NCBI GenBank assembly: GCA_050943055.1
Contig: JBMNOL010000005.1
Span: 1 to 58,607 of the forward strand
Direction: 5' to 3'
From: Patescibacteria group bacterium
Lineage (GTDB): Bacteria; Patescibacteriota; Patescibacteriia; Patescibacteriales; UBA12465
Length of the DNA stretch: 58,607 bases
The notes under the pieces were generated by a model. That model ran no database searches, was not told where the DNA came from, and saw nothing but the letters and a program-made list of their open reading frames with translations. Of the stretch, positions 24,490 to 55,206 are shown one piece after another (position 1 is the stretch's first letter; each line of letters begins with the position of its first letter). The translations under genes and the position numbers were made by a program.

Positions 24490-24499
24490 TTATCTTTTT

Positions 24500-27400: not shown

Positions 27401-30400
27401 CCTATTTGTTGTCCGACTGGAACTTATAAATCTGGTTCTTGTGAAAAAGATTTATTATCTTGTTACTTCCAAGTTCCCAATTCCGTTTACGAAACCCGTT
27501 TTGATACTGCTTCTTCGGGAACTGATACAGACGGTGATTATGCAGATTGTCAGGGCTTAGCTTCGGCTTTTGGCACTTGTCAGACCGGACAGTTCTGTCC
27601 GAATTCTCCAGGAAAGTGCTCTCCTTTTGATGGCTCAATTCCTAAAATTGGAAAAATTTGTGGCGCCGATTTAAAGCCTTGCGGAGCACTTAGTTATTGT
27701 CAGAGCAATGATTGTTTATATAACCAAGCTACAGATACTTGTCGCGCCAATACTTGTTTGTTAGAACAAAGCTTTACTTATTATCTAGGTGATAAAGAGT
27801 ATAGCGGTCTTACTTCTTGTCGTTCCTATACTGGGCCTGATGGACTAACCTCTCTAGTCAAACATTTAAAGGTAGAAACTTCTTGCCCCGATGGCTGGCA
27901 AGCTGTTGGTGGCGGTTATTGTGTTGGCAATGCGCCGACACCCTGCAATACTTGTGAAACAGGATTTAAGTGTGTAGCTGATAATTACCAAAGTGGAGAT
28001 ATTGGTGTTTGTGAATCGGCTAAAATTTGTAGTGGTCCGGGGGCTTACTGCGGCTTTAATATTCAGCAGCCTGGACAGTTGGCTTGTTTGAGTCCAGCCC
28101 AATCTTCTTGTGATTGTTGTTGCGAGATTGGCCAAGATGCGCGGGATTGTTGCGTGCCCTTAAAATGCGGTGGGACTTGTGGTAGCGACCAGAGTGCCGA
28201 TGGTGTTGGTTTTGGTTTCTGTACCGGCTGCACCGCCGCTGGTGACACAGCGGCTGAACGCGATGCTGCTTGTAATTGTTTGTCAACGAGCGGTAAATTT
28301 TGTGATATTAGTAAACCGGAAGGCGCTTGTGTTGATTGTGGCGCCCTAGATGAAGCTGGCTGTTTAGAGCACAGCACTCAGTGCTGTTTTGACCAGGCAA
28401 AACAAACTTGTCAGGGCGGTGATGGGACGAAATTAGCCGATGGGCGCTGTGCTTATTATGACTGTGATGCTAGCGACAAAACTGTTTGCAATGAGAATCC
28501 CGCGCCGACCGGAAGATTTAAAAAATTAGATACTTGCCAGAGTACTTGCCCCGAAGATCCGAAAACGGTTTGTGATTTAGCGACTACCGAGGCCGATTGT
28601 TCGCGATATGATGCTTGTTGCTTTGATGCTAAAAATAATAAATGTACGAATGGTACGGATAAAATTATCGCCGCGGAAGGGATTAATTATTGTGCTTACT
28701 ATAATTGTGAAGACGAAGTTAAAGAAATTGTTGATCCGGAGACCGGCGAGTCCTCTTTTGAAACTAAAAAAGTTTGCGATGATAGCACCGCGACTATTAA
28801 TGGTGAATATTTAGGTTTACCCGAGTGTCGTGCCCAGTGTACTAAAGGGCCTAATCAGCCCGGTAATTCTTGTCGCTCTGATTTATTAACAGCTTGTGAT
28901 ACTAGTGTTTGTCAGTCGCCCTATGAATGTCTAGGGACGGAAGAGTGTGGTTTCTGCTGCTGTACGCCTGGAGATAAACTAAATGAGAATCTTGTTTGCG
29001 TGGCCGATAAAGGTAATTGTACCGGCGGTGATCGTGGCTTATTTTGCGGGTGCACCAAGGATGAGCAGTGTGGCGGTGATGTTGGTTGCGGTAATGATAC
29101 TTGTTGCCATGCTCGTCCGCAAGTGATTAATGTTTTACCAAAAAATGATCAGACTAATGTTTGTCGCAATGCGCAAATTAAAATAGAGTTTAATGAGATG
29201 ATGCAGATTGGCACTTTAGCTAATAATATTCTATTGGTTGAAGAAAAAGATTACGATGATGGTGCTTGTCCGTCAGGAACACTGATTGCTGATGGCGGTC
29301 CTGATGAGCGATCATTTTTTGTCAAATTATTTGAGCGGGTGAAAAATTGGTTTAATCCGTCGCCATCGGCTTTGGCGGCTCTACCGGCTTCGGGGAAATT
29401 ATATTGCGCTAAACCGGTAGAATTAGTTTATAATTCTTCTTTCTATAATAATCAGCCGGCTACGACTGTCTTCTTGCGCCCCAAGGAATTGTTAGCGGCT
29501 AATGCACGTTACTTTGTCTTGGTTAAAGGCGATGAAAGTGCCGACAGTAATAGTGGTGTCTTAAATATTTATGGAGTCGGGATGAAGACCGGTCGAGCGG
29601 CGACTTTTAATATTCGCGACTTCAATAATGTTTACGTAACGAGTTTCGACACCTTAGATGATAAGTCTCAACAAAACGGTTTGTGTGAAATTGATTCCGT
29701 AAAATTAGATCCGACCAATGTTTTATTAAATAATCCCGATAATGATACTACCGATGATAATCCTAGTGATGCTAAATTTAATACCGTAAATGATAATGAC
29801 CGAGCTTTTTATGCCAATGCTTATAGTAAAGACGGTCAGATAATTCAACCGGTCATCGGTTATTATTGGAACTGGCGCTGGTCCTTAGATAATCAGTCGG
29901 TGGTGGAAATGGTGCCTTTAAGTGGTCTTTTAGCTGATCGCCAGGTAGTACGCAGTTTAGCGGGAGTTACTGATAATAGTACCAAGATTAAAGCGCTGAT
30001 TGATATGGATGGTGCAATTGACAATATTTCTTTTGTCGGTAACGGTTTTGAAGCGAAGGCTGATATTCAGGTTTTCCTTTGTGCTAATCCTTGGCCTCCG
30101 ATTAGAAATGGTTTGTGGCAGCCGTGGTACGATAGTTGTCGTGATCGCGATGGTCAGGCTATCGCTGGTTGTCTAAATTATAATTATAAATTTTATTATT
30201 GCCGTGATGCCGGCGAGCCGGGAACGGCTGATGATCTACCGCTAGTGATTGACCCCGCTCTTATTTTAGGGAGTTCCGGTAGTTTAGTTTGCAGCACTGA
30301 TAACAGTTCCTGCTCTTCGGCTGGAGCTGCCTGTGGCAATGGTGGAACTTGTATCTGGAGCGTCTTAAAAGAATCTTATTTCTTCCGCGAAACAATTCCT

Positions 30401-31009
30401 TTGGCGGGAGAAATTTGGGAAATTAAAAGTACCGGTCAGGGCGGAGAATTACGTTTAAGTTGGAGTAGTCCTTTGAGTTTGGATGTCCCAATTGTTGCTT
30501 TTAAGCTATACTATGGATTAGCAGGTAGTAATAAACAGTCATTTATAAAAACCATTCCTTTAGGAGCGGCCTCTTGCTCAGTCGTAGAACAAAAACAATA
30601 TTGTTCTCATGTGGTTAGCGGTTTGATAAATGAGGAGAAGTATATTTTTAGAATGACGGCGCTCACCGAGAACCAAGCGGAAAGCCCACTTTCTGGAGCG
30701 CGCGAAGCTTTTCCTACTGATACCACCCCACCAGCCATTCCGCAGGGGTTAAAGGCAGAATTAAATGAAAATCAATTAACCTTATCTTGGCTAGCCAATC
30801 GTGATGACACTCAGTATTATCGACTCTTTCATGGTATTTTCCCCGGAAAACGGGCGGCCGAATCTTTTGATTCCCAAAACAAAGCCACCAGAATTACTTT
30901 AGAAACAAATAATTTTCAGTCAGGTGAACATTACTTTTATTTAGTCGCGGTTGATGCCTCCGGCAATATCAGTCTTAGCTCTTCAGAAATTAAAGTTCTT
31001 ATTCCTTAG
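24500..31009 (+). CDS. Giant predicted surface protein B (2,169 aa) with a pilin-like N-terminal anchor, EGF-like Cys modules, a jelly-roll/CBM-like domain, several IPT/TIG-like domains, a Cys-dense core and two C-terminal FN3-like domains
   Basis: The anchor helix is QAKKILKNSAIGLLIILSSWGIAYF. IPT-like segments include ISGFSPVSGPAGQYLTITGGGFG and CKIDPERGQVGDTVSLWGEYFG. FN3-like segments include GELRLSWSSP... and PQGLKAELNENQLTLSW. I chose the ATG at 24500 (MRHFGKK) over the track start at 24464, which overlaps gene A. Confidence 0.85.
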   Translation: MRHFGKKILILITLIILAGGLAATASATVNVGLEEVGNTIALSNQGPIETATRVINIFLGLLGIIALALILWGGFIWMTAGGSQEKIAQAKKILKNSAIGLLIILSSWGIAYFILSRLTGDVFDSGSGSDGCSNGSVVSCGCGGEQVCNNGVWGPCLGSFCDPGSSSNPVSCDGKTEVSGCQADSNLCGPDYLCNNSTCECEPRSALGEACNNDKSGSGRCEANDSLCGPYLKCNNESCLCEGPPVITAISPVGGFCSNDQNRGCNYDSDCLSGGECDQVSPNGAANNFLTLYGYNFGSLVDISQTTLTRIDFESGSVGGVPASWAVRTQQKSQVGISQEAARSGSQSLKIGQAANLPYPGVCNRQICTDLNSCTWNEFNRTCTFNQPDEKNSQAPAVYREGESLVWGNTNRVMWAEVTYDLAPLDLRLGDTYTIQFYYQGQNDSAINLVITPAPGWNSQCLGYDVPGTLKSGYIWDGGKVVPPVSDGEDPCHSDYGQTCANQPNNCCFNAPAQKKCYQPLNLPAIPSGKTADWTLYSYTFQYTPEMASWVNSGGNKLLKLAFSIGYNRTSAAGTNFYIDDFHVLKNLTNGRVSFLGGDPSQAQAANFPNSLNPNCVSYWTDRQITVAVPSGAVSGPIMIEREGLGENNSDTTNDNIGPKIPDFVRNNVYRPGLCQISPEEGQLGDRVSYQGINLRDAVAYFGKYSNAYQGINSSFTADNLSGQTLAPNISSGQTTTFVERTLAGINQKSNALKFVKNKDPEAGPYISGFSPVSGPAGQYLTITGGGFGNLRGSRQVFIGNQEASYDFPEVCTSAVWSDNQITVKIPEGLSPGHHQIRINLGDTVINSDLLAPNNTFRFDSSESLKTSLCKIDPERGQVGDTVSLWGEYFGLAGSQATVVFNRGINTSATVQKENRADKIVTTVPISANGSPAITGPVRVLKNSEWGNELNFVVGQCAANDECGAAAPICCPTGTYKSGSCEKDLLSCYFQVPNSVYETRFDTASSGTDTDGDYADCQGLASAFGTCQTGQFCPNSPGKCSPFDGSIPKIGKICGADLKPCGALSYCQSNDCLYNQATDTCRANTCLLEQSFTYYLGDKEYSGLTSCRSYTGPDGLTSLVKHLKVETSCPDGWQAVGGGYCVGNAPTPCNTCETGFKCVADNYQSGDIGVCESAKICSGPGAYCGFNIQQPGQLACLSPAQSSCDCCCEIGQDARDCCVPLKCGGTCGSDQSADGVGFGFCTGCTAAGDTAAERDAACNCLSTSGKFCDISKPEGACVDCGALDEAGCLEHSTQCCFDQAKQTCQGGDGTKLADGRCAYYDCDASDKTVCNENPAPTGRFKKLDTCQSTCPEDPKTVCDLATTEADCSRYDACCFDAKNNKCTNGTDKIIAAEGINYCAYYNCEDEVKEIVDPETGESSFETKKVCDDSTATINGEYLGLPECRAQCTKGPNQPGNSCRSDLLTACDTSVCQSPYECLGTEECGFCCCTPGDKLNENLVCVADKGNCTGGDRGLFCGCTKDEQCGGDVGCGNDTCCHARPQVINVLPKNDQTNVCRNAQIKIEFNEMMQIGTLANNILLVEEKDYDDGACPSGTLIADGGPDERSFFVKLFERVKNWFNPSPSALAALPASGKLYCAKPVELVYNSSFYNNQPATTVFLRPKELLAANARYFVLVKGDESADSNSGVLNIYGVGMKTGRAATFNIRDFNNVYVTSFDTLDDKSQQNGLCEIDSVKLDPTNVLLNNPDNDTTDDNPSDAKFNTVNDNDRAFYANAYSKDGQIIQPVIGYYWNWRWSLDNQSVVEMVPLSGLLADRQVVRSLAGVTDNSTKIKALIDMDGAIDNISFVGNGFEAKADIQVFLCANPWPPIRNGLWQPWYDSCRDRDGQAIAGCLNYNYKFYYCRDAGEPGTADDLPLVIDPALILGSSGSLVCSTDNSSCSSAGAACGNGGTCIWSVLKESYFFRETIPLAGEIWEIKSTGQGGELRLSWSSPLSLDVPIVAFKLYYGLAGSNKQSFIKTIPLGAASCSVVEQKQYCSHVVSGLINEEKYIFRMTALTENQAESPLSGAREAFPTDTTPPAIPQGLKAELNENQLTLSWLANRDDTQYYRLFHGIFPGKRAAESFDSQNKATRITLETNNFQSGEHYFYLVAVDASGNISLSSSEIKVLIP

Positions 31010-31025
31010 CTTTTTATTATTTTTT

Positions 31026-33295
31026 AATACTCCACTCACATGCTTGCTTTAATTCGTCGTTTTAAGCGACCGCTAATTATCTCCAGCCTTCTCTTATTTG
31101 TGGCTGTTATTATTAGCCTCACGCCGCCGGGACGAGCGGCTGAATCTGACGCTATCGCCGTCCGGGTGTTGCCTAATTTGGAACACGACAGCATTGAAGT
31201 TTGGTATAAAAAGCAAGGGTATCAAGGTTCGCCGCAAAGTTTGACGGTTGACGGTTATGAGGCGATTCGTGATGGGCGCACCGTGTTTGTTAACGCTGCC
31301 AATGTTGATGGGAATAAAAAAATCTATACTAACGTCTACCTGATTTCCTATAACCAGGAGTCGCAAGATCAGACTCAAGATATTTTAGGACAATTAATTT
31401 CTCACTGGAAATTTAACAGCAACATCCCCCAAAAAGGGACTTGCTCAATTGCTTCTTTAACTTGTTCAAAGCCTGATGATTGTCCGAATGGTTTTATTTG
31501 TGCTAATGACCCTAACCAAGCCAATTATGGTAAGTGTGTTTTAAGCCAACCAATTGAATGCCTGATTGATAGCGACTGCCCGTTAAATTCTCATTGTAAT
31601 AGTTTAAAGGCTGGTCTAATTCGGGATATTAATCGTTTAGGGAAGTTAAGTCAGATTGAAGAAAAATTAGAAGCTTATAAAAAAGTTGAGGGTTCTTATC
31701 CCGATTTGAGTGAAGGTTCATATCTGCCGGGGGTGACTATTTCGGTATGGCCGAGTTGGACCGATAATTTTCGGGAGCTTTTAGGTTTGAACACTTTAGT
31801 GGTGGATCCGGTCAATTCTTTAGGTAGCTGCCCCGGATTTGAACCCGGAACTTGTTGGAATCCTCAAACAAAAAGATTTTTTGATTCTCAGTTAACGCTT
31901 CCGAGTGGTAGTTACGCCATGATTTATCGAGCCCTGCCGGGAGGTGTTTCCTATAACCTCTGTGCTACTTTTGAAACTCCGGCCTTAGGTTATGATACTG
32001 CTAATGCTCTTTTAACTTCTCGAAATTGCGCGAGTAAAGGCGGTTATCAAGGTGGCGTTATCAACCAACCCCCGTCCTTGATTAGTTCATTTTTAAAAGG
32101 AGAAGCAAATAAAGAATTTAATGGTTATCTTAAAGTTGGCGACCCAGAAGGTGATATTGTTTCTTGGCGCTTAGCTCCGGCTGGCAACTTTTCTTCTTGG
32201 AGCGCCATTCCGATTTTAGAAGCAACCGGCGATCCTTCTCAAAAAAAAGTTTATGCCTCTTCGGCTGGGAACCAGGGTACCTACCCCATGATTCTTACCC
32301 TTACTGACGGCCGCGGTGCTATAAGTACAACGCCGATAAATTTAGAAATTTTTGATATTTTAAAAATAGCGATTGAGGCTGAAGGTATCAGTTATAATTC
32401 TTTTCAAAGCGGATCTTTGCGCTACAATTTCTTTATTAACAGCAGTGACCCTCGAGTTAATTTTCAACTAAGCTCGCCCAACGCTACTTTAAATACCGGT
32501 TTAACTCAAGCGGTCGCGGGGGCAAAAATTACTAATGTCACTTCTAACCGCAAACAAATTTCTTTAGAGATTCCTCTTGCTCAGTATTTAAGCGGCCAAT
32601 ATGAGGTGAGAATTTCCGCTAGTGATAGCTCTGGCGCTGACGCCAAAACGGTAACTTTTGATTTTATCCGCGATCCGCTCACTTTTAATTTCTCTTGTGA
32701 TAATCAGGCTCGTTTGGGCAAAGGGTATCAAATTGGTGGCACTTCTTGTCTGCTCGGGCCCTTAAGCCAAGGAGTACGCACTATCAATTATCAAGTTGCT
32801 AACAATCCTTTTGGCTTTGTTGTTAGAAATTCTGGAGGCAATGCTTTCCTGGAAGCCTATCGAGTAACCAGTGGCAATGTTTCTAATCCCAATGCTCCTA
32901 CCACCACCCTTCTCACTCTTAGGGCCAGTGATAATTTTGGTGAGTCGACAGAAAAAAAATTAGCCTTACGCATTAATACTTATTGCGGTGATGGTATTAA
33001 GCAGCAACCAAATACCGAGGCCGCCGGCGGACCGCAAAATAATGGTATTGAACAGTGTGACGGTTTAGACGGCTTAGCTCCTCAAGGGCAAATTAGTAAT
33101 TCCTCTAATCAACAATATGCTTGTACTACTCCTCTCGGAGTAAATACTCCTTTCCCGATTAATAGTAATGAGCATTGCGCTTTTAAAGCTCCGCAAGATG
33201 GAGGTGGGTACTGTGGTGACGGTTTTTGCCAAGTATCGAGTGGGGGAATTTTAAGAGAAAATTGTAGTAATTGTCCTAAAGATTGTGGGGCCTGT
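31026..33295 (+). repeat. Copy 1 of a 2,270-bp direct repeat (partner at 37492-39761)
   Basis: Base-by-base comparison of several stretches, including both ends, showed no difference. The ORF translations are identical over 752 aa. The repeat starts 14 nt upstream of the ATG. Confidence 0.9.
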
Positions 33296-35113
33296 GAGTG
33301 TGTGCCTCAATGCACGGGCCGAGAATGTGGCGACGATGGTTGTGGTACTAATCCCAACGCTTGCGGTACCTGTGCTTCCGGGGAAACTTGCAGTAATGGT
33401 ATTTGTAAAGCGCCAGTATGTGTCCCTAATTGTACAGGTAAAACTTGTGGTACCGACGGCTGTGGTGGCACTTGCGGCACCTGTGCGACTGATGAAACTT
33501 GTAATGCTGGACTTTGTGAAAAAAATAAATGTATTCCTAATTGTACAGGTAAAACTTGTGGTACCGACGGCTGTGGTGGCACTTGCGGTACCTGTGCTTC
33601 CGGGGAAACTTGCAGTAATGGTATTTGTAAAGCGCCAGTATGTGTCCCTAATTGTACAGGTAAAACTTGTGGTACCGACGGCTGTGGTGGCACTTGCGGC
33701 ACCTGCGCCACTGATGAAACTTGTAATGCTGGACTTTGTGAAGAAAATAAATGCGTCCCTAATTGTTTAGGTAAAACTTGTGGTACCGACGGCTGTGGTG
33801 GCACTTGCGGCACCTGTGTCTCGGGCGAGACTTGCAACAATGGTCTTTGTGAAAAGATCGCTTGCATTCCCAACTGTAGTGGCCGAAATTGCGGTACTGA
33901 CGGCTGTGGCGGTACTTGCGGCACCTGCGCCACTGATGAAACTTGTAATGCTGGACTTTGTGAAGAAAATAAATGTATTCCTAACTGTACAGGTAAAACT
34001 TGCGGTACCGATGGCTGTGGTGGTACTTGCGGCACCTGTGTCTCGGGCGAGACCTGCAATAATGGTCTTTGTGAAAAAACTAGTTGTATTCCTAGCTGCT
34101 CTCTAAAAAATTGTGGTGATGATGGTTGCGGTAACTCTAATGGCTGTGGCACTTGCGCGGCCGGGGAAACTTGCAGTAATGGTATTTGTAAAGCGCCAGT
34201 ATGTGTCCCTAATTGTACAGGTAAAACTTGCGGTACCGACGGCTGTGGCGGCACTTGTGGAACTTGTCTCTCTTCGCAAAAATGTGAAAACAACAAATGC
34301 ATAACTACTTGTCAGCCAAGGTGTGGTATTAATGTCTGCGGCGACGACGGTTGTGGTGGTTCTTGTGGAACTTGTGCTTCTGGTGAAACTTGTATTTATG
34401 GCTTATGTTGCAAGAAGAATGCAACTATAAATGTTTGTGGCGATCGAGATACCTATGTCTATTTTAATGGGGCTTATGTAAATCAATCAGTTGAGAAATC
34501 ACCTTTAATGACTAATACTGTTAGTAATGTTAGGACCGGATATAATTATGTGCAAATTAAAGTTTACGATCATGGACCTTTTATCTGGGCAGGCAATAAC
34601 TTCGCTTTATCGGCCGGAATAACTTATACCGGTTGTCGCGGAAAAAGTGGAAATATATATTATCATTCAAACACTACTGATCTTTACAACTGGCGTTGCA
34701 CAAATAATTATAACTCTTCTTGGAATTCATATAATCCCTCTTTTGATTTTTATTCAATCCCGAAGTCGGTGTTATCTGACGCACCTCATGATACCGACAG
34801 TTGGTGTAATAAAGATTCTTTTTATGGACCCCCGTCTCACCAGATTTGGGCGGATACCAATAAAAGGCGATCAAACAGTGAGACGATTTATTGCTATCAT
34901 CGGTTTAATTTAGAAAGCATAGTTAGTAGCGGAAAAGCCAAATTGCCTACCTATTGGTGTGGCGACGGTACTTGTAATTCTGGAGAAACCTACTCTAACT
35001 GTTCGGCCGATTGCGATAAACCAACACTCCCTCCACATAAACCTCCTGTCGTTGAGCCTTGCGGGGATTGTCAACCTGGCAAGGTGTGCACTCCTTGTAA
35101 AGGTATTGAATAA
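31040..35113 (+). CDS. Secreted Cys-rich protein C (1,357 aa): shared 752-aa N-terminal part, 10 x 8-Cys modules, a beta-rich lectin-like domain and a terminal CGDGxC repeat
   Basis: Signal-peptide-like N-terminus (LLLFVAVIISLTPPGRA/AE). An Ig-like segment is present (GDPEGDIVSWRL...LTLTDGRG). The repeat array has the consensus CxPNCTGKTCGTDGCGGTCGTCxxxETCxxGxC. Confidence 0.85.
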   Translation: MLALIRRFKRPLIISSLLLFVAVIISLTPPGRAAESDAIAVRVLPNLEHDSIEVWYKKQGYQGSPQSLTVDGYEAIRDGRTVFVNAANVDGNKKIYTNVYLISYNQESQDQTQDILGQLISHWKFNSNIPQKGTCSIASLTCSKPDDCPNGFICANDPNQANYGKCVLSQPIECLIDSDCPLNSHCNSLKAGLIRDINRLGKLSQIEEKLEAYKKVEGSYPDLSEGSYLPGVTISVWPSWTDNFRELLGLNTLVVDPVNSLGSCPGFEPGTCWNPQTKRFFDSQLTLPSGSYAMIYRALPGGVSYNLCATFETPALGYDTANALLTSRNCASKGGYQGGVINQPPSLISSFLKGEANKEFNGYLKVGDPEGDIVSWRLAPAGNFSSWSAIPILEATGDPSQKKVYASSAGNQGTYPMILTLTDGRGAISTTPINLEIFDILKIAIEAEGISYNSFQSGSLRYNFFINSSDPRVNFQLSSPNATLNTGLTQAVAGAKITNVTSNRKQISLEIPLAQYLSGQYEVRISASDSSGADAKTVTFDFIRDPLTFNFSCDNQARLGKGYQIGGTSCLLGPLSQGVRTINYQVANNPFGFVVRNSGGNAFLEAYRVTSGNVSNPNAPTTTLLTLRASDNFGESTEKKLALRINTYCGDGIKQQPNTEAAGGPQNNGIEQCDGLDGLAPQGQISNSSNQQYACTTPLGVNTPFPINSNEHCAFKAPQDGGGYCGDGFCQVSSGGILRENCSNCPKDCGACECVPQCTGRECGDDGCGTNPNACGTCASGETCSNGICKAPVCVPNCTGKTCGTDGCGGTCGTCATDETCNAGLCEKNKCIPNCTGKTCGTDGCGGTCGTCASGETCSNGICKAPVCVPNCTGKTCGTDGCGGTCGTCATDETCNAGLCEENKCVPNCLGKTCGTDGCGGTCGTCVSGETCNNGLCEKIACIPNCSGRNCGTDGCGGTCGTCATDETCNAGLCEENKCIPNCTGKTCGTDGCGGTCGTCVSGETCNNGLCEKTSCIPSCSLKNCGDDGCGNSNGCGTCAAGETCSNGICKAPVCVPNCTGKTCGTDGCGGTCGTCLSSQKCENNKCITTCQPRCGINVCGDDGCGGSCGTCASGETCIYGLCCKKNATINVCGDRDTYVYFNGAYVNQSVEKSPLMTNTVSNVRTGYNYVQIKVYDHGPFIWAGNNFALSAGITYTGCRGKSGNIYYHSNTTDLYNWRCTNNYNSSWNSYNPSFDFYSIPKSVLSDAPHDTDSWCNKDSFYGPPSHQIWADTNKRRSNSETIYCYHRFNLESIVSSGKAKLPTYWCGDGTCNSGETYSNCSADCDKPTLPPHKPPVVEPCGDCQPGKVCTPCKGIE
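33299..34408 (+). repeat. In-frame tandem array of 10 modules of 36-40 aa (about 111 bp) with 8 Cys each, plus a 222-bp higher-order repeat
   Basis: A roughly 125-nt segment starting at 33361 recurs almost identically at 33583 (offset 222), and in part again at about 34145. All frames are open on both strands across the array. Confidence 0.9.
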
Positions 35114-35126
35114 TTAACTAAAATAT

Positions 35127-35384
35127 ATGCCGATAATAAAGTTAAAAAATAAAAAAACAGTTATTATTGCTTTTTTTGGTATTGTCGCTTTTGTTTTGCT
35201 TGCTGTTATTTTTGTTTTGAGCTGGCTAGAAAAAGGAAATAATGTTTCCTCATCACCTGAGGAGACTTATCAGACCAGGCCTATGAGAGAGGATGAAAAA
35301 TTAAGATATCAAATTAATCCAGAAAAAGAAGTTGAAGTCATCAAAGATAGTGAAGGAGATTTTATTTATAAAATAAATGAATAG
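35127..35384 (+). CDS. Hypothetical small single-pass membrane protein
   Basis: 85-aa ORF with one TM helix (VIIAFFGIVAFVLLAVIFVL), packed between island genes. Confidence 0.55.
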   Translation: MPIIKLKNKKTVIIAFFGIVAFVLLAVIFVLSWLEKGNNVSSSPEETYQTRPMREDEKLRYQINPEKEVEVIKDSEGDFIYKINE

Positions 35385-36240
35385 TTTTATGTTTAATGAT
35401 TTAAAACCAGTAAACCCATCAGTTAATGAAAATAATCCACCAGTGGATGATATTTTCGCTGATACCGATAAGGATGATTTACCGGCGCCAGCAGCGCCGG
35501 GAGCCAATCCCGATAATTCCGGTCAGCAATTTTCCGGATATTATGCTAATCAAACCGCGGCCCCAGAGACCAATGCGACTGAGCAAAATATTGAAGCTCA
35601 GTTAGCAGATTTAAATAATTTTTCCGGTCAGGCGAGTGGCCAAGGACCGAAAAAAAACCTTAAATTAATTGGTGGAATAGTTGCTTTTATTTTGCTAATA
35701 GTTTTGGGGTATTTAGTTTATAGCCAGTTAATTGCTAATAAACCAGAGCCAATTGTGGCGGAGCCAATTAATAATGCTTTAGAAAATGAGGAAATACCGG
35801 TAATTACTCCCAGTCTAGAAAATAATGTTGAGAGTGAGGAAGAATATTTACCCGAAGATAATGCTCCAGTAGTTAATCCGCCGGTAAGTGAGGAAGTGGA
35901 TTTTATTCCCTCAGTGCCGCTAGGGACAACTACGCCACCGGTAGCCAATATGGACAGCGATGGTGATGGGTTGTCTGATCAGCAAGAAATAATTTTAGGA
36001 ACCAATTCTTTGCGGACCGATAGCGATGATGATGGCCTGACTGATTATGAAGAGGTTAATATTTATTTAACCGACCCCTTAAACCCGGACAGCGATGGTG
36101 ATGGCCTCTCAGACTACGAAGAAATAAAAATTTACAAAACAGACCCTTTAAATTCCGATAGCGATAATGATGGCTATAGTGATAAGACGGAAATTGACAC
36201 CGGCTATAATCCTAATGGTCTAGGCAAATTATCAGAATAA
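35377..36240 (+). CDS. Membrane-anchored protein with four thrombospondin type-3-like Ca-binding repeats
   Basis: Central TM helix ([19 protein letters not shown]). The repeats are [36 protein letters not shown] and [12 protein letters not shown]. Confidence 0.75.
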
Positions 36241-36242
36241 TT

Positions 36243-37367
36243 ATGTTTAAAAACTCTAATAAAAAAACTAAAGAGAAGGCTGATAGCAATAAAAATAGTG
36301 AGGCCTCTGAAGATAAGATAAATAAAGAGATCAATGAAAATTTGGTTACTCATAAGATGCCGGCTTGGGAGCGTTTCTCTGGCCAGACCTATTCTTCTCA
36401 TAGTGAAAACATTGAAGCCAAGTCAGCAGTAATGGGGCAGCCTAAAAAAACTGGTGCCGTGCTAATAGCAGTTGGTATTTTAGTTTTAGTAGTCGTTCTC
36501 GGTGCGGGGTATTGGTTTATAATTAAACCAATTTTAGAAAAACCAACCTCCACTCCTAATCAAGTTGAGAATACTTATCAAGCTCCAATTGATCAAGAAT
36601 TAACTGATTATCCTGTTGAACCGACAGATACCGAAATCGCCACTACCAGCCCGATTAACGATGGGTCGGCTTCCAGCACTGAACTTGCGGCCACCTCGAC
36701 AGCCACTTCCACTGAAGAAATTATTTCCGAAGATATGCCGGTGGTAACCTCACCCTTAGTAGAATCACCAGATACCGATAATGATGGCTTAACCGATGCT
36801 GAAGAGCGAGTAGCAGGGACGGATCCGGAAAATGCCGATACCGATAATGATGGCTTAACCGATGCTGAAGAGCGAGTAGCAGGGACGGATCCGGAAAATG
36901 CCGATACCGATAATGATGGTTATTCTGATCTGCAAGAATTATTATCTGGCTATGATCCCTTAGTATCTAATGAAAAGCTGGGAATTAGCTCTGCTTTGCA
37001 GGCCAACAGTCTAGATGGTCAGGCGCGTATTTTATACCCAGTTGACTGGAGTGTGGTGGAAAGCCCTTCTACTAACACGGTGGTTTTTTCAGATAGTGAT
37101 CAAGCTTTCATTCAAGCCACTTATCATAGTAATGATAGTGCTTTAAGTGCCGGTGCCTGGTTGGCCAATGAAATGCCGGGGGCAGTCGCTAAAGAATTTA
37201 TTTCTGGTGAGGGCTGGACGGGCTTTATTCTAGATGATGGTTTAAGTGCTTATGTTTTTAGTGATGATGATAAACGAGTTTATACAATTACTTGTTTACC
37301 TCTCGCCCCCAACACCGACAGTCCGGCCGTCTTTACTTTAATGTTAAAAACCATCTTTGTTTTTTAA
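36243..37367 (+). CDS. Membrane-anchored protein with three thrombospondin type-3-like repeats and an uncharacterised C-terminal domain
   Basis: TM helix ([22 protein letters not shown]). The repeats are [12 protein letters not shown] (twice) and [12 protein letters not shown]. Confidence 0.75.
36771..36902 (+). repeat. Perfect 66-bp in-frame tandem duplication (2 units plus a 17-nt partial third)
   Basis: The unit gataccgataatgatggcttaaccgatgctgaagagcgagtagcagggacggatccggaaaatgcc occurs at 36771-36836 and again at 36837-36902. Confidence 0.9.
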
Positions 37368-37491
37368 TATTTTTTTGTTGATAGCCAAAATAGCTGATGG
37401 TTAACTTAATTAAAAATAAGTTTACTCTTAAATTACCGGTACAGTTTTTTTCTGAAAGTTGAAATATTTATCCTTTAACTTTATTCTCTTA

Positions 37492-39761
37492 AATACTCCA
37501 CTCACATGCTTGCTTTAATTCGTCGTTTTAAGCGACCGCTAATTATCTCCAGCCTTCTCTTATTTGTGGCTGTTATTATTAGCCTCACGCCGCCGGGACG
37601 AGCGGCTGAATCTGACGCTATCGCCGTCCGGGTGTTGCCTAATTTGGAACACGACAGCATTGAAGTTTGGTATAAAAAGCAAGGGTATCAAGGTTCGCCG
37701 CAAAGTTTGACGGTTGACGGTTATGAGGCGATTCGTGATGGGCGCACCGTGTTTGTTAACGCTGCCAATGTTGATGGGAATAAAAAAATCTATACTAACG
37801 TCTACCTGATTTCCTATAACCAGGAGTCGCAAGATCAGACTCAAGATATTTTAGGACAATTAATTTCTCACTGGAAATTTAACAGCAACATCCCCCAAAA
37901 AGGGACTTGCTCAATTGCTTCTTTAACTTGTTCAAAGCCTGATGATTGTCCGAATGGTTTTATTTGTGCTAATGACCCTAACCAAGCCAATTATGGTAAG
38001 TGTGTTTTAAGCCAACCAATTGAATGCCTGATTGATAGCGACTGCCCGTTAAATTCTCATTGTAATAGTTTAAAGGCTGGTCTAATTCGGGATATTAATC
38101 GTTTAGGGAAGTTAAGTCAGATTGAAGAAAAATTAGAAGCTTATAAAAAAGTTGAGGGTTCTTATCCCGATTTGAGTGAAGGTTCATATCTGCCGGGGGT
38201 GACTATTTCGGTATGGCCGAGTTGGACCGATAATTTTCGGGAGCTTTTAGGTTTGAACACTTTAGTGGTGGATCCGGTCAATTCTTTAGGTAGCTGCCCC
38301 GGATTTGAACCCGGAACTTGTTGGAATCCTCAAACAAAAAGATTTTTTGATTCTCAGTTAACGCTTCCGAGTGGTAGTTACGCCATGATTTATCGAGCCC
38401 TGCCGGGAGGTGTTTCCTATAACCTCTGTGCTACTTTTGAAACTCCGGCCTTAGGTTATGATACTGCTAATGCTCTTTTAACTTCTCGAAATTGCGCGAG
38501 TAAAGGCGGTTATCAAGGTGGCGTTATCAACCAACCCCCGTCCTTGATTAGTTCATTTTTAAAAGGAGAAGCAAATAAAGAATTTAATGGTTATCTTAAA
38601 GTTGGCGACCCAGAAGGTGATATTGTTTCTTGGCGCTTAGCTCCGGCTGGCAACTTTTCTTCTTGGAGCGCCATTCCGATTTTAGAAGCAACCGGCGATC
38701 CTTCTCAAAAAAAAGTTTATGCCTCTTCGGCTGGGAACCAGGGTACCTACCCCATGATTCTTACCCTTACTGACGGCCGCGGTGCTATAAGTACAACGCC
38801 GATAAATTTAGAAATTTTTGATATTTTAAAAATAGCGATTGAGGCTGAAGGTATCAGTTATAATTCTTTTCAAAGCGGATCTTTGCGCTACAATTTCTTT
38901 ATTAACAGCAGTGACCCTCGAGTTAATTTTCAACTAAGCTCGCCCAACGCTACTTTAAATACCGGTTTAACTCAAGCGGTCGCGGGGGCAAAAATTACTA
39001 ATGTCACTTCTAACCGCAAACAAATTTCTTTAGAGATTCCTCTTGCTCAGTATTTAAGCGGCCAATATGAGGTGAGAATTTCCGCTAGTGATAGCTCTGG
39101 CGCTGACGCCAAAACGGTAACTTTTGATTTTATCCGCGATCCGCTCACTTTTAATTTCTCTTGTGATAATCAGGCTCGTTTGGGCAAAGGGTATCAAATT
39201 GGTGGCACTTCTTGTCTGCTCGGGCCCTTAAGCCAAGGAGTACGCACTATCAATTATCAAGTTGCTAACAATCCTTTTGGCTTTGTTGTTAGAAATTCTG
39301 GAGGCAATGCTTTCCTGGAAGCCTATCGAGTAACCAGTGGCAATGTTTCTAATCCCAATGCTCCTACCACCACCCTTCTCACTCTTAGGGCCAGTGATAA
39401 TTTTGGTGAGTCGACAGAAAAAAAATTAGCCTTACGCATTAATACTTATTGCGGTGATGGTATTAAGCAGCAACCAAATACCGAGGCCGCCGGCGGACCG
39501 CAAAATAATGGTATTGAACAGTGTGACGGTTTAGACGGCTTAGCTCCTCAAGGGCAAATTAGTAATTCCTCTAATCAACAATATGCTTGTACTACTCCTC
39601 TCGGAGTAAATACTCCTTTCCCGATTAATAGTAATGAGCATTGCGCTTTTAAAGCTCCGCAAGATGGAGGTGGGTACTGTGGTGACGGTTTTTGCCAAGT
39701 ATCGAGTGGGGGAATTTTAAGAGAAAATTGTAGTAATTGTCCTAAAGATTGTGGGGCCTGT
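37492..39761 (+). repeat. Copy 2 of the 2,270-bp direct repeat (partner at 31026-33295)
   Basis: Same evidence as copy 1. The offset between copies is 6,466 bp. Flanks on both sides are unrelated between the copies. Confidence 0.9.
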
Positions 39762-40658
39762 TTTGAGTATTGTGGCAATGGGCATTGTGGTAGCAGTGAA
39801 AATAATAATTCTTGTCCCAGTGATTGTTTGCCTGTTTGTGGAGATAGTATCTGCAGCACTTCTCGGGAAAATTATTCTAATTGCAGTATAGATTGTGCAC
39901 CTATTTGTGGCGATGGTATTTGTGCTGGGGAAACTAAATATACCTGTCCTGGCGATTGCGGGGCTCCATCTGTTTGCGATGCCTCAGTGACTGATGATGA
40001 AGGCAATACTTATAAAACTGTTAAAATTGGAGAACAATGTTGGATGGCTGAAAATATCAATATTGGTAGTATGCTCTCATCGGTTTATGATTTGCCAAAT
40101 ACAACTGATAATGTTATTGAAAAATGGTGCTATGGGAATAACCCTGCTAATTGTGACAGCGGCGGTGGTTTGTATCACTGGGATGAAGCGATGCGTGGTT
40201 CACAAATTCCCGGTGCGCGCGGTATTTGCCCAGCCGGTTGGCATATCCCCACTGATGAGGAAATAAATATTTTGGAAGTTTATACTTTAAAAAAAATTAA
40301 TAGTTCGGTCACTCAATATCCTTGTGATGTTTTTACCATAGGTTCCCGTTGCGCTGATAACAACGGTAACGTGGGTGGTGGCGAGAAAGGGGTTGGTAAA
40401 TCTTTTAAAGGGGTTGGTATCGGCACTGGAGTAGGAGTTGGGGATGATTTGGTTGGTTTTAATGCTAAATTGCCAGGCTATTTTCATGGAGAGATTTCTT
40501 CTTTTATCGGCTATGGGGATTATCTTCTCTTATGGTCATCTACACCTATACTATCGTCTCGTGCCATATATCGTTATCTGGATTCAGAATATTCGGTAAG
40601 CTATCGAGATTCTAATTATCGGCTTTTTGGCTTCTCAGTACGCTGTTTACAGGATTAA
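37506..40658 (+). CDS. Secreted Cys-rich protein G (1,050 aa): the same 752-aa N-terminal part, three short CGxGxC...C..DC repeats and a C-terminal FISUMP (Fibrobacter succinogenes major paralogous) type domain
   Basis: The C-terminus reads DDEGNTYKTVKIGEQCWMAENINIG ... GGGLYHWDEA ... CPAGWHIPTDEE ... LWSST ... GFSVRCLQD. This matches the FISUMP pattern as I recall it. Confidence 0.85.
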   Translation: MLALIRRFKRPLIISSLLLFVAVIISLTPPGRAAESDAIAVRVLPNLEHDSIEVWYKKQGYQGSPQSLTVDGYEAIRDGRTVFVNAANVDGNKKIYTNVYLISYNQESQDQTQDILGQLISHWKFNSNIPQKGTCSIASLTCSKPDDCPNGFICANDPNQANYGKCVLSQPIECLIDSDCPLNSHCNSLKAGLIRDINRLGKLSQIEEKLEAYKKVEGSYPDLSEGSYLPGVTISVWPSWTDNFRELLGLNTLVVDPVNSLGSCPGFEPGTCWNPQTKRFFDSQLTLPSGSYAMIYRALPGGVSYNLCATFETPALGYDTANALLTSRNCASKGGYQGGVINQPPSLISSFLKGEANKEFNGYLKVGDPEGDIVSWRLAPAGNFSSWSAIPILEATGDPSQKKVYASSAGNQGTYPMILTLTDGRGAISTTPINLEIFDILKIAIEAEGISYNSFQSGSLRYNFFINSSDPRVNFQLSSPNATLNTGLTQAVAGAKITNVTSNRKQISLEIPLAQYLSGQYEVRISASDSSGADAKTVTFDFIRDPLTFNFSCDNQARLGKGYQIGGTSCLLGPLSQGVRTINYQVANNPFGFVVRNSGGNAFLEAYRVTSGNVSNPNAPTTTLLTLRASDNFGESTEKKLALRINTYCGDGIKQQPNTEAAGGPQNNGIEQCDGLDGLAPQGQISNSSNQQYACTTPLGVNTPFPINSNEHCAFKAPQDGGGYCGDGFCQVSSGGILRENCSNCPKDCGACFEYCGNGHCGSSENNNSCPSDCLPVCGDSICSTSRENYSNCSIDCAPICGDGICAGETKYTCPGDCGAPSVCDASVTDDEGNTYKTVKIGEQCWMAENINIGSMLSSVYDLPNTTDNVIEKWCYGNNPANCDSGGGLYHWDEAMRGSQIPGARGICPAGWHIPTDEEINILEVYTLKKINSSVTQYPCDVFTIGSRCADNNGNVGGGEKGVGKSFKGVGIGTGVGVGDDLVGFNAKLPGYFHGEISSFIGYGDYLLLWSSTPILSSRAIYRYLDSEYSVSYRDSNYRLFGFSVRCLQD

Positions 40659-40680
40659 ATAAAAATTAGTTTTAAAAAGC

Positions 40681-40707
40681 AAAAAAGACCGCTTTCGCGG
40701 TCTTTTT
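40681..40707. terminator. Bidirectional terminator between island gene G and convergent clpP
   Basis: aaaaa-agaccgc-tttc-gcggtct-tttt. Confidence 0.8.
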
Positions 40708-40723
40708 AGTTATTATTGTCGTT

Positions 40724-41302
40724 TTATTTTTTGAGAACCAAGTCGATTAAACCATATTTTTTAGCTTCTTCAGCACTCATCCAATTGTCGCGGTCGGAAT
40801 CTTTGTCGATTTCTTCTTTTTTATGATTGCTGTGTTTAGCTAGTAATTGATTAAGTTTATCTTTTATTTTTAGGATATGTTCCGCCTGAATTTTAATATC
40901 CGAAGCTTGCCCTTCGGTACCGCCCATTACTTGGTGAATCATGATTTCGCTATTAGGCAGAGCCATTCTCTTGCCGGGAGCTCCAGCTGCTAATAGAACT
41001 GAGGCCATAGAGGCGGCCATGCCCACGCAAATTGTGGAAATTGGCGCTTTAATATATTGCATGGTGTCATAGATGGCTAGCCCCGATGACACTGAGCCGC
41101 CTGGAGAGTTGATATAAAATTTAATATCTTTATCTTTATCCTCGGCGTCCAAAAACAAAAGCTGAGCAATAACATTGTTGGCCACGTGATCGTCAATCGC
41201 CTCACCTAAAAAAATAATCCGGTCTTTTAGTAGACGAGAATAGATATCATAGGCACGTTCAGAGTGCCCTTCTTTTTCAATTACTGTAGGTATTAGAGCC
41301 AT
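40724..41302 (-). CDS. clpP: ATP-dependent Clp protease proteolytic subunit
   Basis: Motifs [29 protein letters not shown] (catalytic Ser) and IMIHQ (His). Confidence 0.97.
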
Positions 41303-41464
41303 ATTTTTAAAAAAATTAAAATATTTCAGGCTTAGTATAAAAGATTATGCTTATTTTGTAAAGAATGACTCTTAAAAATATTGATTTTTTAATGATTTTA
41401 GTTTAAGCTGAGAAAAGAAAACAGGGCTGATTACCCGTTTTGCTTTTTTAATTATTAAATTACT

Positions 41465-55054: not shown

Positions 55055-55083
55055 AAAAACCGGGTTCACCGGTTTTAAAAATG

Positions 55084-55156
55084 AGCCGAGGATGGGGATC
55101 GAACCCACGACCTGCGCGTTACGAGTGCGCTGCTCTACCAACTGAGCCACCTCGGC
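55084..55156 (-). tRNA. tRNA-Thr (anticodon CGU)
   Basis: The minus strand reads gccgagg-tg-gctc-agttggta-gagc-a-gcgca-CTCGTAA-cgcgc-aggtc-gtggg-ttcgatc-cccat-cctcggc-t. This is a 73-nt cloverleaf with the T-loop GTTCGATC. CCA is not encoded. Confidence 0.9.
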
Positions 55157-55206
55157 ACTGCCTTGATTATAAAAGGAAGACTCTCCTTAGTCAACTAAAA
55201 ATATAT

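Follow-up and report, generated by a model that had tools for sequence, protein, structure and literature searches.

The window, a Patescibacteria contig stretch of 58,607 nucleotides, carries two real, tandem, same-strand genes (A and B), predicted to encode adhesin-like cell-surface proteins. They share an N-terminal part, the stalk, and end in different tips. We consider it probable that these are true twin genes, gene A being ancestral and gene B inserted, and that their stalks are kept identical by RecA-type gene conversion. Gene B was inserted, as a 3.29-kb segment, between the last gene of an operon and its old terminator. Conversion would overwrite across the entire homologous stretch of the two genes and halt at the limits of homology, namely the leader and the stalk/tip junction. 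The stalk presumably must stay matched to its operon partners. The features are collected in Table 1.

Base-by-base comparison at an offset of 6,466 nt gave a single exact run of 2,270 nt between the two repeat copies (R_A and R_B), with chance-level identity (24-32%) over 50-500 nt outside either end. The 0 mismatches come from one assembly and may hide a few real copy differences: a de Bruijn assembler that traverses a U-R-L-R-D loop would give both copies the same consensus, and a divergence of 3% would not collapse. Both start codons lie 14 nt into the repeat, which ends after codon 752 (...NCSNCPKDCGAC), and the translations are identical over their first 752 aa. These results bear out the first-pass annotation, which had described a 2,270-bp direct repeat and a shared 752-aa part, starting 14 nt before the ATG and stopping at the end of a Cys-rich linker. 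The antisense ORFs that it reported as identical are indeed so, trivially, because both lie within the repeat. Its description of the upstream flanks as unrelated holds in essence, with a weak, doubtful resemblance in the last ~45 nt (~69% with gaps, p ~0.04 against shuffles).

Table 1. Features of the twin-gene locus, in window coordinates.
Feature	Coordinates	Strand	Evidence
First operon gene, 898 aa; N-terminal VirB2-like T4SS_pilin domain and Ig-like domain	21793..24489	+	Pfam PF18895 3.9e-08; NCBIfam pilin-like conjugal transfer family
Second operon gene, 2,181-aa giant; T4SS_pilin, TIG, Big_5 and fn3 domains	24464..31009	+	Pfam matches; synteny kept in relatives
Repeat copy 1 (R_A); 14-nt leader and gene A codons 1-752, the family-conserved stalk module	31026..33295	+	Exact match to 37492-39761
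Gene A, 1,357 aa; stalk and tip A; ancestral, syntenic copy	31040..35113	+	ORF, translation; orthologues in relatives
Tip A, first part; ten 37-aa modules in tandem, each with 8 Cys; period 111 nt	33299..34405	+	Repeat families D1 and D2, module listing
Tip A, distal part; beta-sandwich domain, one CGDGxC module, Cys/Pro-rich tail	34406..35113	+	AlphaFold model
Gene x, 85 aa; conserved small operon gene	35127..35384	+	Same place in all relatives examined, 82-101 aa
Gene y, 287 aa; bacterial thrombospondin type 3 (TSP3, Ca-binding) repeats	35377..36240	+	Pfam TSP3_bac 1.3e-26
Gene z, 374 aa; TSP3 repeats; last gene of ancestral operon	36243..37367	+	Pfam TSP3_bac 2e-20
Lineage-specific insertion, ~3.29 kb; spacer, R_B and tip B	37368..40659	+	Empty in L012 (sister species) and L017 (same species)
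Spacer upstream of copy 2, unique, 124 nt	37368..37491	+	No other copy in window
Repeat copy 2 (R_B)	37492..39761	+	Exact match to copy 1
Gene B, 1,050 aa; stalk and tip B	37506..40658	+	ORF, translation, structure model
Tip B; three short CGxGxC modules and FISUMP (Fib_succ_major, C-type-lectin-like) domain at aa 832-1050	39762..40658	+	PF09603, TIGR02145
Ancestral bidirectional terminator hairpin between operon and clpP, now 3' of gene B	40682..40707	.	Terminator scan
clpP, conserved right-hand neighbour	40724..41302	-	Pfam CLP_protease 3.8e-85

The earlier account of the tips, with ten 8-Cys modules and a beta-rich domain in A, and three CGxGxC repeats and a FISUMP domain in B, was confirmed by the module listing and by PF09603 and TIGR02145. 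The AlphaFold model of the distal part of tip A shows beta strands (pLDDT 69). For this domain Foldseek returned only weak lectin/CBM-like matches (best E = 0.04), and it is seen again in about 18 tips of the stalk-tip family. The three modules of tip B read CG[DN][GS]xC, and its FISUMP domain scores 85.6 bits against PF09603 (cut-off 33.9; 7e-24) and 93.6 bits against TIGR02145 (cut-off 41.65; 2.2e-26). In the structure model of gene B the stalk is confident, with residues 40-750 mostly at pLDDT > 90 and three Ig-like domains. The spacer before gene B holds a promoter-like site, TTGAAA-17-TATTCT, at 37459-37487 (promoter scan). The two tips may well confer two different binding specificities, with host or substrate glycans as the probable targets.

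The stalk opens with a helix that serves as signal or anchor, followed by an N-terminal domain and three Ig-like domains, and closes with a Cys-rich, disulfide-rich linker whose end is DCGxC; it is predicted to form an extracellular Ig-like array. It has no Pfam model. Its family signature, a conserved N-terminal region of ~750 aa ending GGGYCGDGxCQ...ENCxNCxxDCGxC with a variable tip after it, fits both genes. The search for stalk homologues gave 387 matches, every one covering the stalk, and the family, a large and uncharacterised one of Patescibacteria, amounts to 1,289 representative clusters. The stalk contains 24 Cys, and many Cys and Trp columns are invariant across the family. Alignment to it stops at residue 749-752 in 113 of 120 homologues, so that the repeat coincides exactly with the family module. 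The first-pass annotation had pointed to related genomes as a place to look for alternative tips behind a common N-terminal part. These were found, with at least 26 tip clusters past the module among 114 homologues. Tips diverge much faster than stalks, with for instance 93% identity in the stalk versus 52% in the tip.

The locus lies in a housekeeping neighbourhood (gyrA, ruvB, queA, hisS, relA, clpP, secDF, ftsAZ). The conserved order is relA(-), a 0.9-kaa and a 2-kaa pilin-domain gene, the stalk gene, the small gene, the TSP3 genes, clpP(-) and secDF. The first operon gene keeps its position in L001, L005, L007 and L008, and the second has its stop codon 16 nt upstream of repeat copy 1. Gene A occupies the conserved stalk slot, as in L001, L005-L008 and L012, and in L001, L002 and L012 this slot holds orthologues with an A-type tip. 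Gene B is an extra copy outside this ancestral slot. Gene z contains a perfect 66-nt tandem duplication (repeat family D5), and is 352 aa long in L017 and L012.

Comparison with relatives reveals gene B as a clean insertion between z and the ancestral terminator. In the relatives L005-L008 and L012 the same operon contains just one stalk gene, and the terminator and clpP come directly after z; hairpins homologous to this terminator lie 3' of z in L012, L017, L005, L007 and L008. The empty site of L012 is marked by its positions 5079 and 5086, which align to window 37366 and 40660, respectively, and in L017 the alignment skips from 37366 to 40655. Gene B is thus absent from the closest related species and from one strain of the same species (L017), whose identity to the window is 98.5-100%, and 99.7-100% in the adjoining z and clpP. 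On these alignments, gene B is a presence/absence polymorphism within the species. Filled and empty sites showed no terminal inverted repeats, target-site duplication or attC at the junctions, and no mobile-element gene (transposase, integrase) occurs in the window. A mobile element (IS, transposon or integron cassette) was rejected as the origin of gene B on these grounds.

Two junctions are new relative to the related genomes, z-spacer-repeat and repeat-tip B-ClpP, and both are reproduced by contigs from seven other datasets, with clpP serving as the anchor for finding strain contigs. One contig (L011, JGI 3300060823) matches window 33582-37590 at 100%, crosses the z-spacer-repeat junction and breaks off 99 nt within R_B. 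Since it was assembled separately, the z-spacer-R sequence derives from reads and is no creation of the assembler. Contigs of the other six datasets (L003, L013, L014, L015, L016, L018) all carry R-tip B-terminator-clpP and, L003 excepted, end 28-344 nt inside the 3' end of R. The contig of L014 (megahit, k = 141) starts 141 nt before its first site able to distinguish the copies, and that of L013 (Logan, k = 31) starts 30 nt before a site of this kind.

The first-pass annotation had offered an assembly artefact as the alternative, and these junctions make it highly improbable. Under an artefact or a mis-resolved strain mixture there would be one stalk segment, or a chromosome U-R-tip B plus a distinct circle of 6,466 bp (R-tip A-x-y-z-spacer). 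The assembly graph is indeed a simple loop open to both readings, short reads cannot span an exact repeat of 2.27 kb, and two contigs extend into R (L003 by 1,705 nt; L018 by 344 nt at k = 31). However, the z-spacer-R junction stands at 100% in the separately assembled JGI contig, and the insertion is cleanly bounded against the empty-site alleles. Five independent contigs break at a k-mer-scale distance inside R, as a true two-copy repeat predicts. Moreover, x, y and z are chromosomal and beside clpP in every relative, so the tandem form would be at least the parent of any circle.

The age of gene B bears on how the stalks came to be identical. In strains L013, L014 and L016 (96-97.7% ANI), tip B is 95.8-97.4% identical to that of the window, with 11-16 synonymous-codon differences per 894 nt; in the same strains seven flanking genes have 140-186 per 8,268 nt. 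Tip B is therefore as diverged as its flanks in strains 3-4% diverged, which places gene B before the strain split. At the flank rate, ~38-51 synonymous differences would be expected between independently evolving stalk copies, and 0 were observed. As gene B is older than the strain split and yet the stalks differ nowhere, concerted evolution is favoured over a fresh duplication. Of the two possibilities named in the first-pass annotation, a recent duplication or gene conversion, it is thus conversion that the 0 differences in 2,270 nt point to, and we infer that this process homogenises the stalk copies.

A very recent one-off event, in which the stalk of gene A was copied before a FISUMP-coding segment in the window lineage, would need no gene conversion. 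It fits the 0 differences between the stalks, the 99.7-100% identity of the empty-site strain in z and clpP, which suits a young insertion, and the GC3 of tip B (0.284 vs 0.36 +/- 0.036 for the genome), which is a mild hint of foreign origin. We consider it unlikely. Gene B is found with the same right-hand junction in the 3-4% diverged strains, where a tip B that is 2.6-4.2% different, with synonymous changes proportional to those of the flanks, is too much for a young gene. A single-step build would also need three novel joints (spacer-R, R-tip B and tip B-terminator).

Between genomes the repeat does differ. The window R and the B-linked R of other strains show 7 differences in 159 nt (L014), 6 in 73 nt (L013) and 3, all synonymous, in 1,705 nt (L003); the within-genome value set against these is that of the window pair only (0 in 2,270 nt). 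The L014-type variants of the B-linked stalk fall at the equivalents of 39641, 39644, 39698, 39700 and 39733. Strains L014 and L016 have the same sequence throughout tip B and the flanks, yet they are told apart by positions 39744 and 39746, which lie at the end of R. Judged from these contigs, such a mosaic is the pattern that a conversion tract would produce. The positions at which contigs break suggest that the A-linked stalk of the diverged strains equals their B-linked stalk.

Two observations count against twin genes homogenised by conversion. The first is L017, which has no gene B although its z and clpP nearly match those of the window. This would suit a recent gain of gene B by the window haplotype, which then needs transfer of an old B allele by homologous recombination. 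The second is the 1,705-nt run of L003 into R with three private SNPs, which one would not expect were R exactly repeated in that sample.

The first-pass annotation had also pointed out that recombination between the direct copies would delete 6,466 bp. The reasoning is sound, but the deletion variant was not observed; the polymorphism found is the presence or absence of the whole gene B (L017). If tip-switching were programmed, the direct repeats would allow RecA-mediated pop-out, re-insertion or amplification of the 6,466-bp segment, and a subpopulation would express stalk-tip B from the operon promoter, much as in phase variation. Perfect direct repeats of 2.27 kb are highly recombinogenic, the geometry is such that the deletion would leave stalk and tip B fused in frame within the operon, and the family swaps tips at exactly this boundary. 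Nevertheless, we regard this as very unlikely: there is no deletion junction or single-copy U-R-tip B contig among the contigs found, and no recombinase or inverted repeats. The deletion would lose x, y and z, which are kept in every relative, including L008, whose single stalk gene carries a FISUMP tip. Lastly, the polymorphism that we observe concerns loss or absence of gene B and not of tip A.

Patescibacteria (CPR) are mostly obligate epibionts, and to our knowledge their host-recognition molecules are largely unknown. The locus defines a very widespread unannotated family in which the Ig-like stalk is rigid, the junction precisely bounded and the lectin-like tips quick to change, so that candidates for host or ligand specificity are in hand. 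The family is plausible as an attachment apparatus, since it shares a conserved operon with giant pilin-domain proteins. One strain can show two tips on one scaffold, and the second gene comes and goes within the species. Tentatively, and with considerable doubt, episymbiotic Patescibacteria may change their binding through recombinase-free cassettes of constant stalk and swappable tip, across more than 1,000 clusters. Each new tip would be acquired as part of an additional, complete stalk gene beside a conserved surface-appendage operon. Conversion would overwrite the incoming stalk to fit the giant pilin-domain and TSP3 proteins, and the tip past the invariant DCGxC junction alone would be free to diverge. 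Such a system would be maintained as a within-species presence/absence polymorphism. Exact multi-kb repeats break short-read MAGs precisely at these genes, so such duplications are probably under-counted.

Several known systems resemble this arrangement in part. The likeness to phage tail fibres and Rhs/CDI systems, raised in the first-pass annotation together with the lack of their marker motifs, stands as an analogy only; no marker motif was found, and there is no recombinase or phage context. A tail fibre or prophage was rejected on the housekeeping neighbourhood and the absence of a DNA match in phage or plasmid collections, and Foldseek against viral structures returned generic Ig arrays only. 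FISUMP / DUF1566 (CLec2) proteins are targets of diversity-generating retroelements (PMC5758913). Tip B is a FISUMP domain, and its closest relatives P0122 and P0125 (~60% identity) adjoin an Avd-like gene and a reverse transcriptase. In the window, which was the scope of this search, no ORF has an RVT domain and no part of tip B has a second copy; strain substitutions are not adenine-biased, and tip B was rejected as such a target.

In the phage Mu G segment, the P1 C segment and the R64 shufflon pilV, a constant N-terminal part and alternative C-terminal receptor-binding parts are likewise encoded side by side, with one constant segment, inverted sites and a dedicated recombinase (Gin, Cin, Rci). 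Here, in contrast, the constant part occurs twice in direct orientation, with no recombinase and no phage context. No inverted repeats of at least 40 nt are present in 28000-43000, and no recombinase or integrase domain among the window ORFs, so a shufflon or invertible tail-fibre segment (Rci/Gin/Cin) was rejected.

In Rhs/CDI loci the N-terminal bulk is conserved and ends at a sharp junction motif, past which come hypervariable C-terminal tips that are swapped by recombination; orphan tips also occur. Conserved N-terminal part, sharp junction and variable tips are shared with our locus, but here the second copy is a full gene and not an orphan fragment, and the tips look like binding domains (FISUMP; beta-sandwich) rather than toxins. 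An Rhs/CDI toxin was rejected, as Pfam and NCBIfam gave no RHS/YD or filamentous-haemagglutinin repeats, VENN-type motif, toxin domain or immunity gene in genes A/B and their neighbours.

Gene conversion is a familiar bacterial route to varied surface proteins. In the sapA S-layer family of Campylobacter fetus, a single promoter is moved by DNA inversion among silent copies. The paralogues have an identical 5' region, coding for the anchoring N-terminus, and divergent exposed 3' regions, with recombination in the conserved 5' region, as would be the case here. On the other hand, genes A and B are both complete, in direct orientation and each plausibly expressed; inversion sites are lacking and the proteins are unrelated to SapA.

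The textbook case of concerted evolution by RecA-dependent gene conversion is tufA/tufB of Salmonella and E. coli. Our locus differs from it in that homogenisation covers just the 5' three quarters of the genes, next to unrelated 3' parts, and in that the copies are in tandem, 6.5 kb apart, and encode surface proteins instead of a housekeeping factor; conversion here is deduced from the pattern. For tufA/tufB the two copies in one genome stay (near-)identical and the orthologues of other strains diverge, a pattern that our locus probably shares; in both cases the limits of identity are those of homology.

The two copies form one unbroken identical run of 2,270 nt when compared base by base at an offset of 6,466 nt, and the pair was also seeded by a generic repeat finder. 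Outside both ends, identity over 50-500 nt is 24-32%, which is the chance level. The run starts 14 nt 5' of the ATG in two same-strand ORFs, here gene A and gene B, and its last codon is number 752 (...NCSNCPKDCGAC). What is repeated is the stalk module and the 14-nt leader, nothing more. Past it, gene A continues into ten 37-aa modules with 8 Cys each (111-nt period) and then a beta-rich domain (tip A), while gene B continues into three CG[DN][GS]xC modules and a FISUMP domain (tip B; PF09603, 85.6 bits, cut-off 33.9; TIGR02145, 93.6 bits, cut-off 41.65). With the exact run, the chance-level flanks and both sets of tip modules confirmed, the first-pass annotation of the repeat and its tips was accurate. 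The identical antisense ORFs that it listed are present, yet they are a trivial outcome, because the repeat itself is identical. An exact-protein look-up of genes A and B matched no record.

Features of the stalk-tip locus and its surroundings
Feature	Position	Strand	Remark
Wzy_C (O-antigen ligase-like) membrane protein gene	8507-9754		
Co-directional gene block	21793-37367		tightly packed
3' end of 2,181-aa gene	30981-31025		
Repeat copy 1	31026-33295		2,270 nt
Gene A	31040-35113	+	1,357 aa
Antisense ORF over tip A repeats	33307-34302	-	331 aa
Gene x	35127-35384		85 aa
Gene y	35377-36240		
Gene z	36243-37367		374 aa
Tandem duplication in z	36771-36836 = 36837-36902		66 nt, perfect
Insertion	37368-40659		~3.29 kb
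Segment 5' of copy 2	37447-37491		~45 nt
Promoter-like sequence	37459-37487		TTGAAA-17-TATTCT
Repeat copy 2	37492-39761		2,270 nt
Gene B	37506-40658	+	1,050 aa
Bidirectional terminator	40682-40707		ancestral
clpP 3' part	40883-40994		matches last 112 nt of contig L003
Second Wzy_C gene	44071-46002		
VirD4/TrwB-like coupling ATPase gene	50445-52385		treble-clef zinc finger
D-Ala-D-Ala carboxypeptidase/DPBB ORF	55021-56760	+	TTG start
tRNA-Thr(CGT)	55083-55156	-	

The segment 5' of copy 2 shows a weak alignment (~69% with gaps) to the 3' end of the 2,181-aa gene located 5' of copy 1. The resemblance is marginal against the copy 1 flank (p ~0.04) and not significant against relatives. It may be what is left of an originally longer duplication that has since decayed, or may have arisen by chance in AT-rich sequence. 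Separately, the 111-nt tandem repeats of tip A produce a long antisense ORF, and on L011, a JGI contig of this locus, the public gene call at 2-724 is a 241-aa minus-strand "gene" over these repeats, which is almost certainly a gene-calling artefact.

In terms of setting, the window is a chromosomal housekeeping stretch with GC of ~41%, carrying gyrA, rmuC, addA-like, ruvB, queA, lepB, hisS, relA, clpP, secD/F, pilD, ftsA/Z, nrdR, a VirD4-like ATPase and two tRNAs. The co-directional block opens with two giant proteins (898 and 2,181 aa) that have an N-terminal VirB2-like T4SS_pilin domain and Ig-like domains, and goes on with gene A, x, and then y and z, both with thrombospondin type 3 (TSP3) repeats. 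VirB2-like pilin-domain genes are common in Patescibacteria (PMC12102498). The layout relA(-), pilin-domain gene, giant pilin-domain gene, one stalk gene, small gene, TSP3 genes, clpP(-), secD, secF is common to relatives throughout the family, as in L005 and L006 (55% amino acid identity), L007 (46%) and L008 (38%). In L008 the single stalk gene bears a FISUMP tip. The coupling ATPase lies ~10 kb downstream of the pilin-domain operon, and the window holds no relaxase or VirB4. There are two separate Wzy_C genes, the second of which, between secF and the prepilin peptidase gene, keeps its position in all relatives examined. The carboxypeptidase/DPBB ORF, called mechanically from a TTG, overlaps the tRNA-Thr gene on the opposite strand, and translation probably begins further 3'.

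Among relatives with context, L012 is the closest; it is a sister-species empty site and the sole locus returned by the metagenome scan. The genome-contig scan, of a collection without the window's own genome, gave no more than a 1.8-kb piece from one relative (L004). In L012 the stalk is 87.5% and the downstream sequence 89.5% identical in nucleotides, and an A-type tip is followed by x, y and z. Its position 5079 aligns to 37366 and 5086 to 40660, so window 37368-40659 is one clean insertion made up of a 124-nt spacer, the repeat and tip B, between the z stop codon and the terminator. It is not accompanied by a transposase, an integrase, an inverted repeat or a target-site duplication, and searches of phage and plasmid DNA collections gave no match to the insertion. 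Codon usage and GC3 of tip B, as a test of foreign origin, give only a 2-SD hint.

A second empty site appears within the species. In L017 (Logan SRR14932674) z runs directly into the terminator and clpP (junction GTTTTCTAG CCAGTTAAATAAAAATTAG), and because this junction retains the ancestral TAG stop seen in L012, it reads as an empty site and not as a deletion scar. Mismatches to the window number 19/950 nt in tip A, 14/864 nt in y, 3/1,125 nt in z and 0/817 nt on the clpP side. The z gene is 374 aa long in the window and L011 and 352 aa in L012 and the same-species L017; the duplication adds one TSP3 repeat unit, and the size difference is a repeat copy-number polymorphism. A 35-kb megahit contig from a 77%-identical species (L001) ends 16 nt before the z stop (equivalent to window 37351), just where gene B starts in the window; this break could reflect an insertion or repeat of its own, or mere chance. 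The deletion of 6,466 bp between the copies, predicted in the first-pass annotation, would join the upstream sequence, one repeat and tip B. No such contig was found, and the event would also take away x, y and z, genes that all relatives retain.

Two of the four repeat junctions, from the upstream sequence into copy 1 and from copy 1 into tip A, are ancestral synteny (L001, L002, L012). The other two are novel, and the earlier suggestion that they came from an assembly artefact was not borne out, as both recur in other assemblies. L011 (JGI 3300060823), a contig of 4,012 bp, is 100% identical to window 33582-37590, runs through z and the spacer into the repeat and stops 99 nt inside copy 2. 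The junction of repeat, tip B, terminator and clpP is present in six contigs, which reach into the repeat from its 3' end by 1,705 nt (L003, NCBI GCA_028697425.1), 344 nt (L018, Logan ERR10905742), 159 nt (L014, ENA ERZ27247813), 127 nt (L015, JGI 3300060823), 73 nt (L013, Logan SRR16297627) and 28 nt (L016, Logan ERR3094297). De Bruijn assemblers stop at k-mer-scale distances in genuine two-copy repeats. The L014 contig (k = 141) begins exactly 141 nt before its first variant that could tell the copies apart (39744), and that of L013 begins 30 nt before its own variant at 39719, with the Logan k assumed to be the usual 31. The repeat interior rests on a single assembly, and an assembler that resolves loops writes out the same consensus for both copies. 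A few true differences between them may thus be hidden; a divergence of a few per cent would resolve into two paths. In L003 the last 112 nt of the contig, in the clpP 3' part, carry 17 substitutions at 3-nt spacing, whereas tip B has none. No more than about half agree with the clpP allele of L013/L014. This end is either a strain chimera or a third clpP allele brought in by recombination.

As for the age of gene B, L013, L014 and L016 are strains 96-97.7% identical to the window over clpP-ftsZ, with 95.8-97.4% identity in tip B. Synonymous-codon differences number 11-16 per 894 nt in tip B and 140-186 per 8,268 nt in seven flanking genes (in clpP, for example, 23, all synonymous). Since tip B is as diverged as its flanks, gene B was already there when these strains split. 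Independent stalk copies of that age should show ~38-51 synonymous differences in 2,256 coding nt; 0 were observed, in the single assembly. The stalk itself is not frozen, and B-linked repeat sequence differs from the window's at 7/159 nt in L014, 6/73 nt in L013 and 3/1,705 nt in L003 (all synonymous). Furthermore, L014 and L016 share the same 38 tip B differences and have matching counts in flanking genes, but they part at two sites within the final 28 nt of the repeat, 39744 and 39746, where L014 has the other-species state and L016 the window state. A conversion tract would give such a local mosaic. A query of the stalk end plus the tip A start, for A-linked stalk fragments of diverged strains, returned only distant Cys-rich proteins.

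An old gene B, zero copy differences, strain variation in the repeat and the L014/L016 mosaic together point to concerted evolution of the stalk copies. The evidence best supports gene conversion, in which an ancestral adhesin-like gene and an inserted paralogue with another tip are the partners; the feature is real, and among the readings offered in the first-pass annotation, whose interpretation was sound, this one stands best. Some room is left for a recent origin of gene B. Its divergence in step with the flanks in L013, L014 and L016 speaks against this, and the main unexplained tension is an old B allele next to flanks near-identical to those of L017. Such a combination implies that homologous recombination carries either the B segment or the empty allele from strain to strain. 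Gene conversion would cover the whole homologous region and halt where homology stops, at the leader and the DCGxC junction. The identical stalks may be a neutral by-product of long-repeat recombination, or they may be favoured, if the stalk must fit co-encoded partner proteins.

The 752-aa part is a conserved module of a large family, with 387 matches in a word-indexed search, and 1,289 representative clusters at E <= 1e-3 (526 at E <= 1e-30) in an exhaustive HMMER search. Stalk homologues with names are Patescibacteria, such as Candidatus Falkowbacteria. The alignment stops at residue 749-752 in 113/120 homologues, directly preceded by an almost invariant GGGYCGDGxCQ...ENCxNCxxDCGxC motif. 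Past the stalk, relatives do carry alternative tips, with at least 26 unrelated clusters among 114 tips, and one family member has no tip at all. Between close orthologues, tip sequences change much more quickly than the stalk (93% stalk against 52% tip identity; 92% against 48%), and at stalk identity of 76% or less they are often swapped outright. A literature search on the family found nothing relevant.

With 85 family sequences as input, AlphaFold gives a confident model over residues 40-750 (mostly pLDDT > 90). It shows a hydrophobic helix at residues 12-27, a predicted signal or anchor, followed by an N-terminal domain, three Ig-like beta-sandwiches (~residues 345-650) and the Cys-rich linker. 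Foldseek relates it to tandem Ig and cadherin ectodomains (titin I65-I70 at 8e-14; desmocollin). The term "stalk" is apt for this module, because model and Foldseek show an Ig-like array. The model of the distal tip A domain is a beta-sandwich whose matches to lectin/CBM-like folds are weak (E = 0.04) and no more than compatible with carbohydrate binding. The FISUMP tip has pLDDT below 50, and PDB sequence searches found nothing. Both proteins would be exported and anchored by the N-terminus, with the Ig-like stalk holding the tip off the cell and the tips acting as binding modules. Both genes are complete. Gene A occupies the operon slot; gene B lies behind a 138-nt gap with a promoter-like sequence (a consensus match only) and no upstream terminator.

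FISUMP domains are surface-exposed and C-type-lectin-like, and are diversified by diversity-generating retroelements (DGRs) in other bacteria (PMC5758913). The closest tip B relatives, P0125 and P0122 (636 aa, ~60% identity), are DGR targets elsewhere in their own genomes; a tip B search found no stalk-bearing orthologue outside the window's species. At L009 10001-13872 and L010 10001-13928, P0125/P0122 is followed by an Avd-like 115-aa gene (weak PF05635 match, L009 only) and an RVT_1 reverse transcriptase, adjoining a type IV pilus operon; in these related Patescibacteria the arrangement resembles a DGR cassette. Between strains (L013, L014, L016), tip B has 12-22 non-synonymous against 11-16 synonymous codon differences, whereas in flanking housekeeping genes the ratio goes from 0 (clpP; L013 secD) to ~0.6, apart from L013 secF at 2:1. 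By this contrast, selection on the FISUMP tip appears to be relaxed or diversifying.

Finally, we compared the locus with known systems. Tip B in this window is not a DGR target, as there is no reverse transcriptase, template repeat or A-biased change, and the absence of inverted repeats and of a recombinase excludes a shufflon or invertible segment. The locus is neither an Rhs/CDI system nor of phage origin, and the earlier statement that marker motifs of Rhs/CDI systems and phage tail fibres are missing holds in marker, neighbourhood, DNA and Foldseek searches: no Rhs/CDI repeat, junction-motif, toxin or immunity marker was found, the neighbours are housekeeping genes, the phage DNA collection was negative, and the viral Foldseek library gave generic Ig arrays only. 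Concerted evolution of surface-protein paralogues is an already known phenomenon. What is of interest here is the size and precise modularity of an uncharacterised Patescibacteria stalk-tip family, a second tip gained or lost within one species, and a testable tie to host or ligand recognition.
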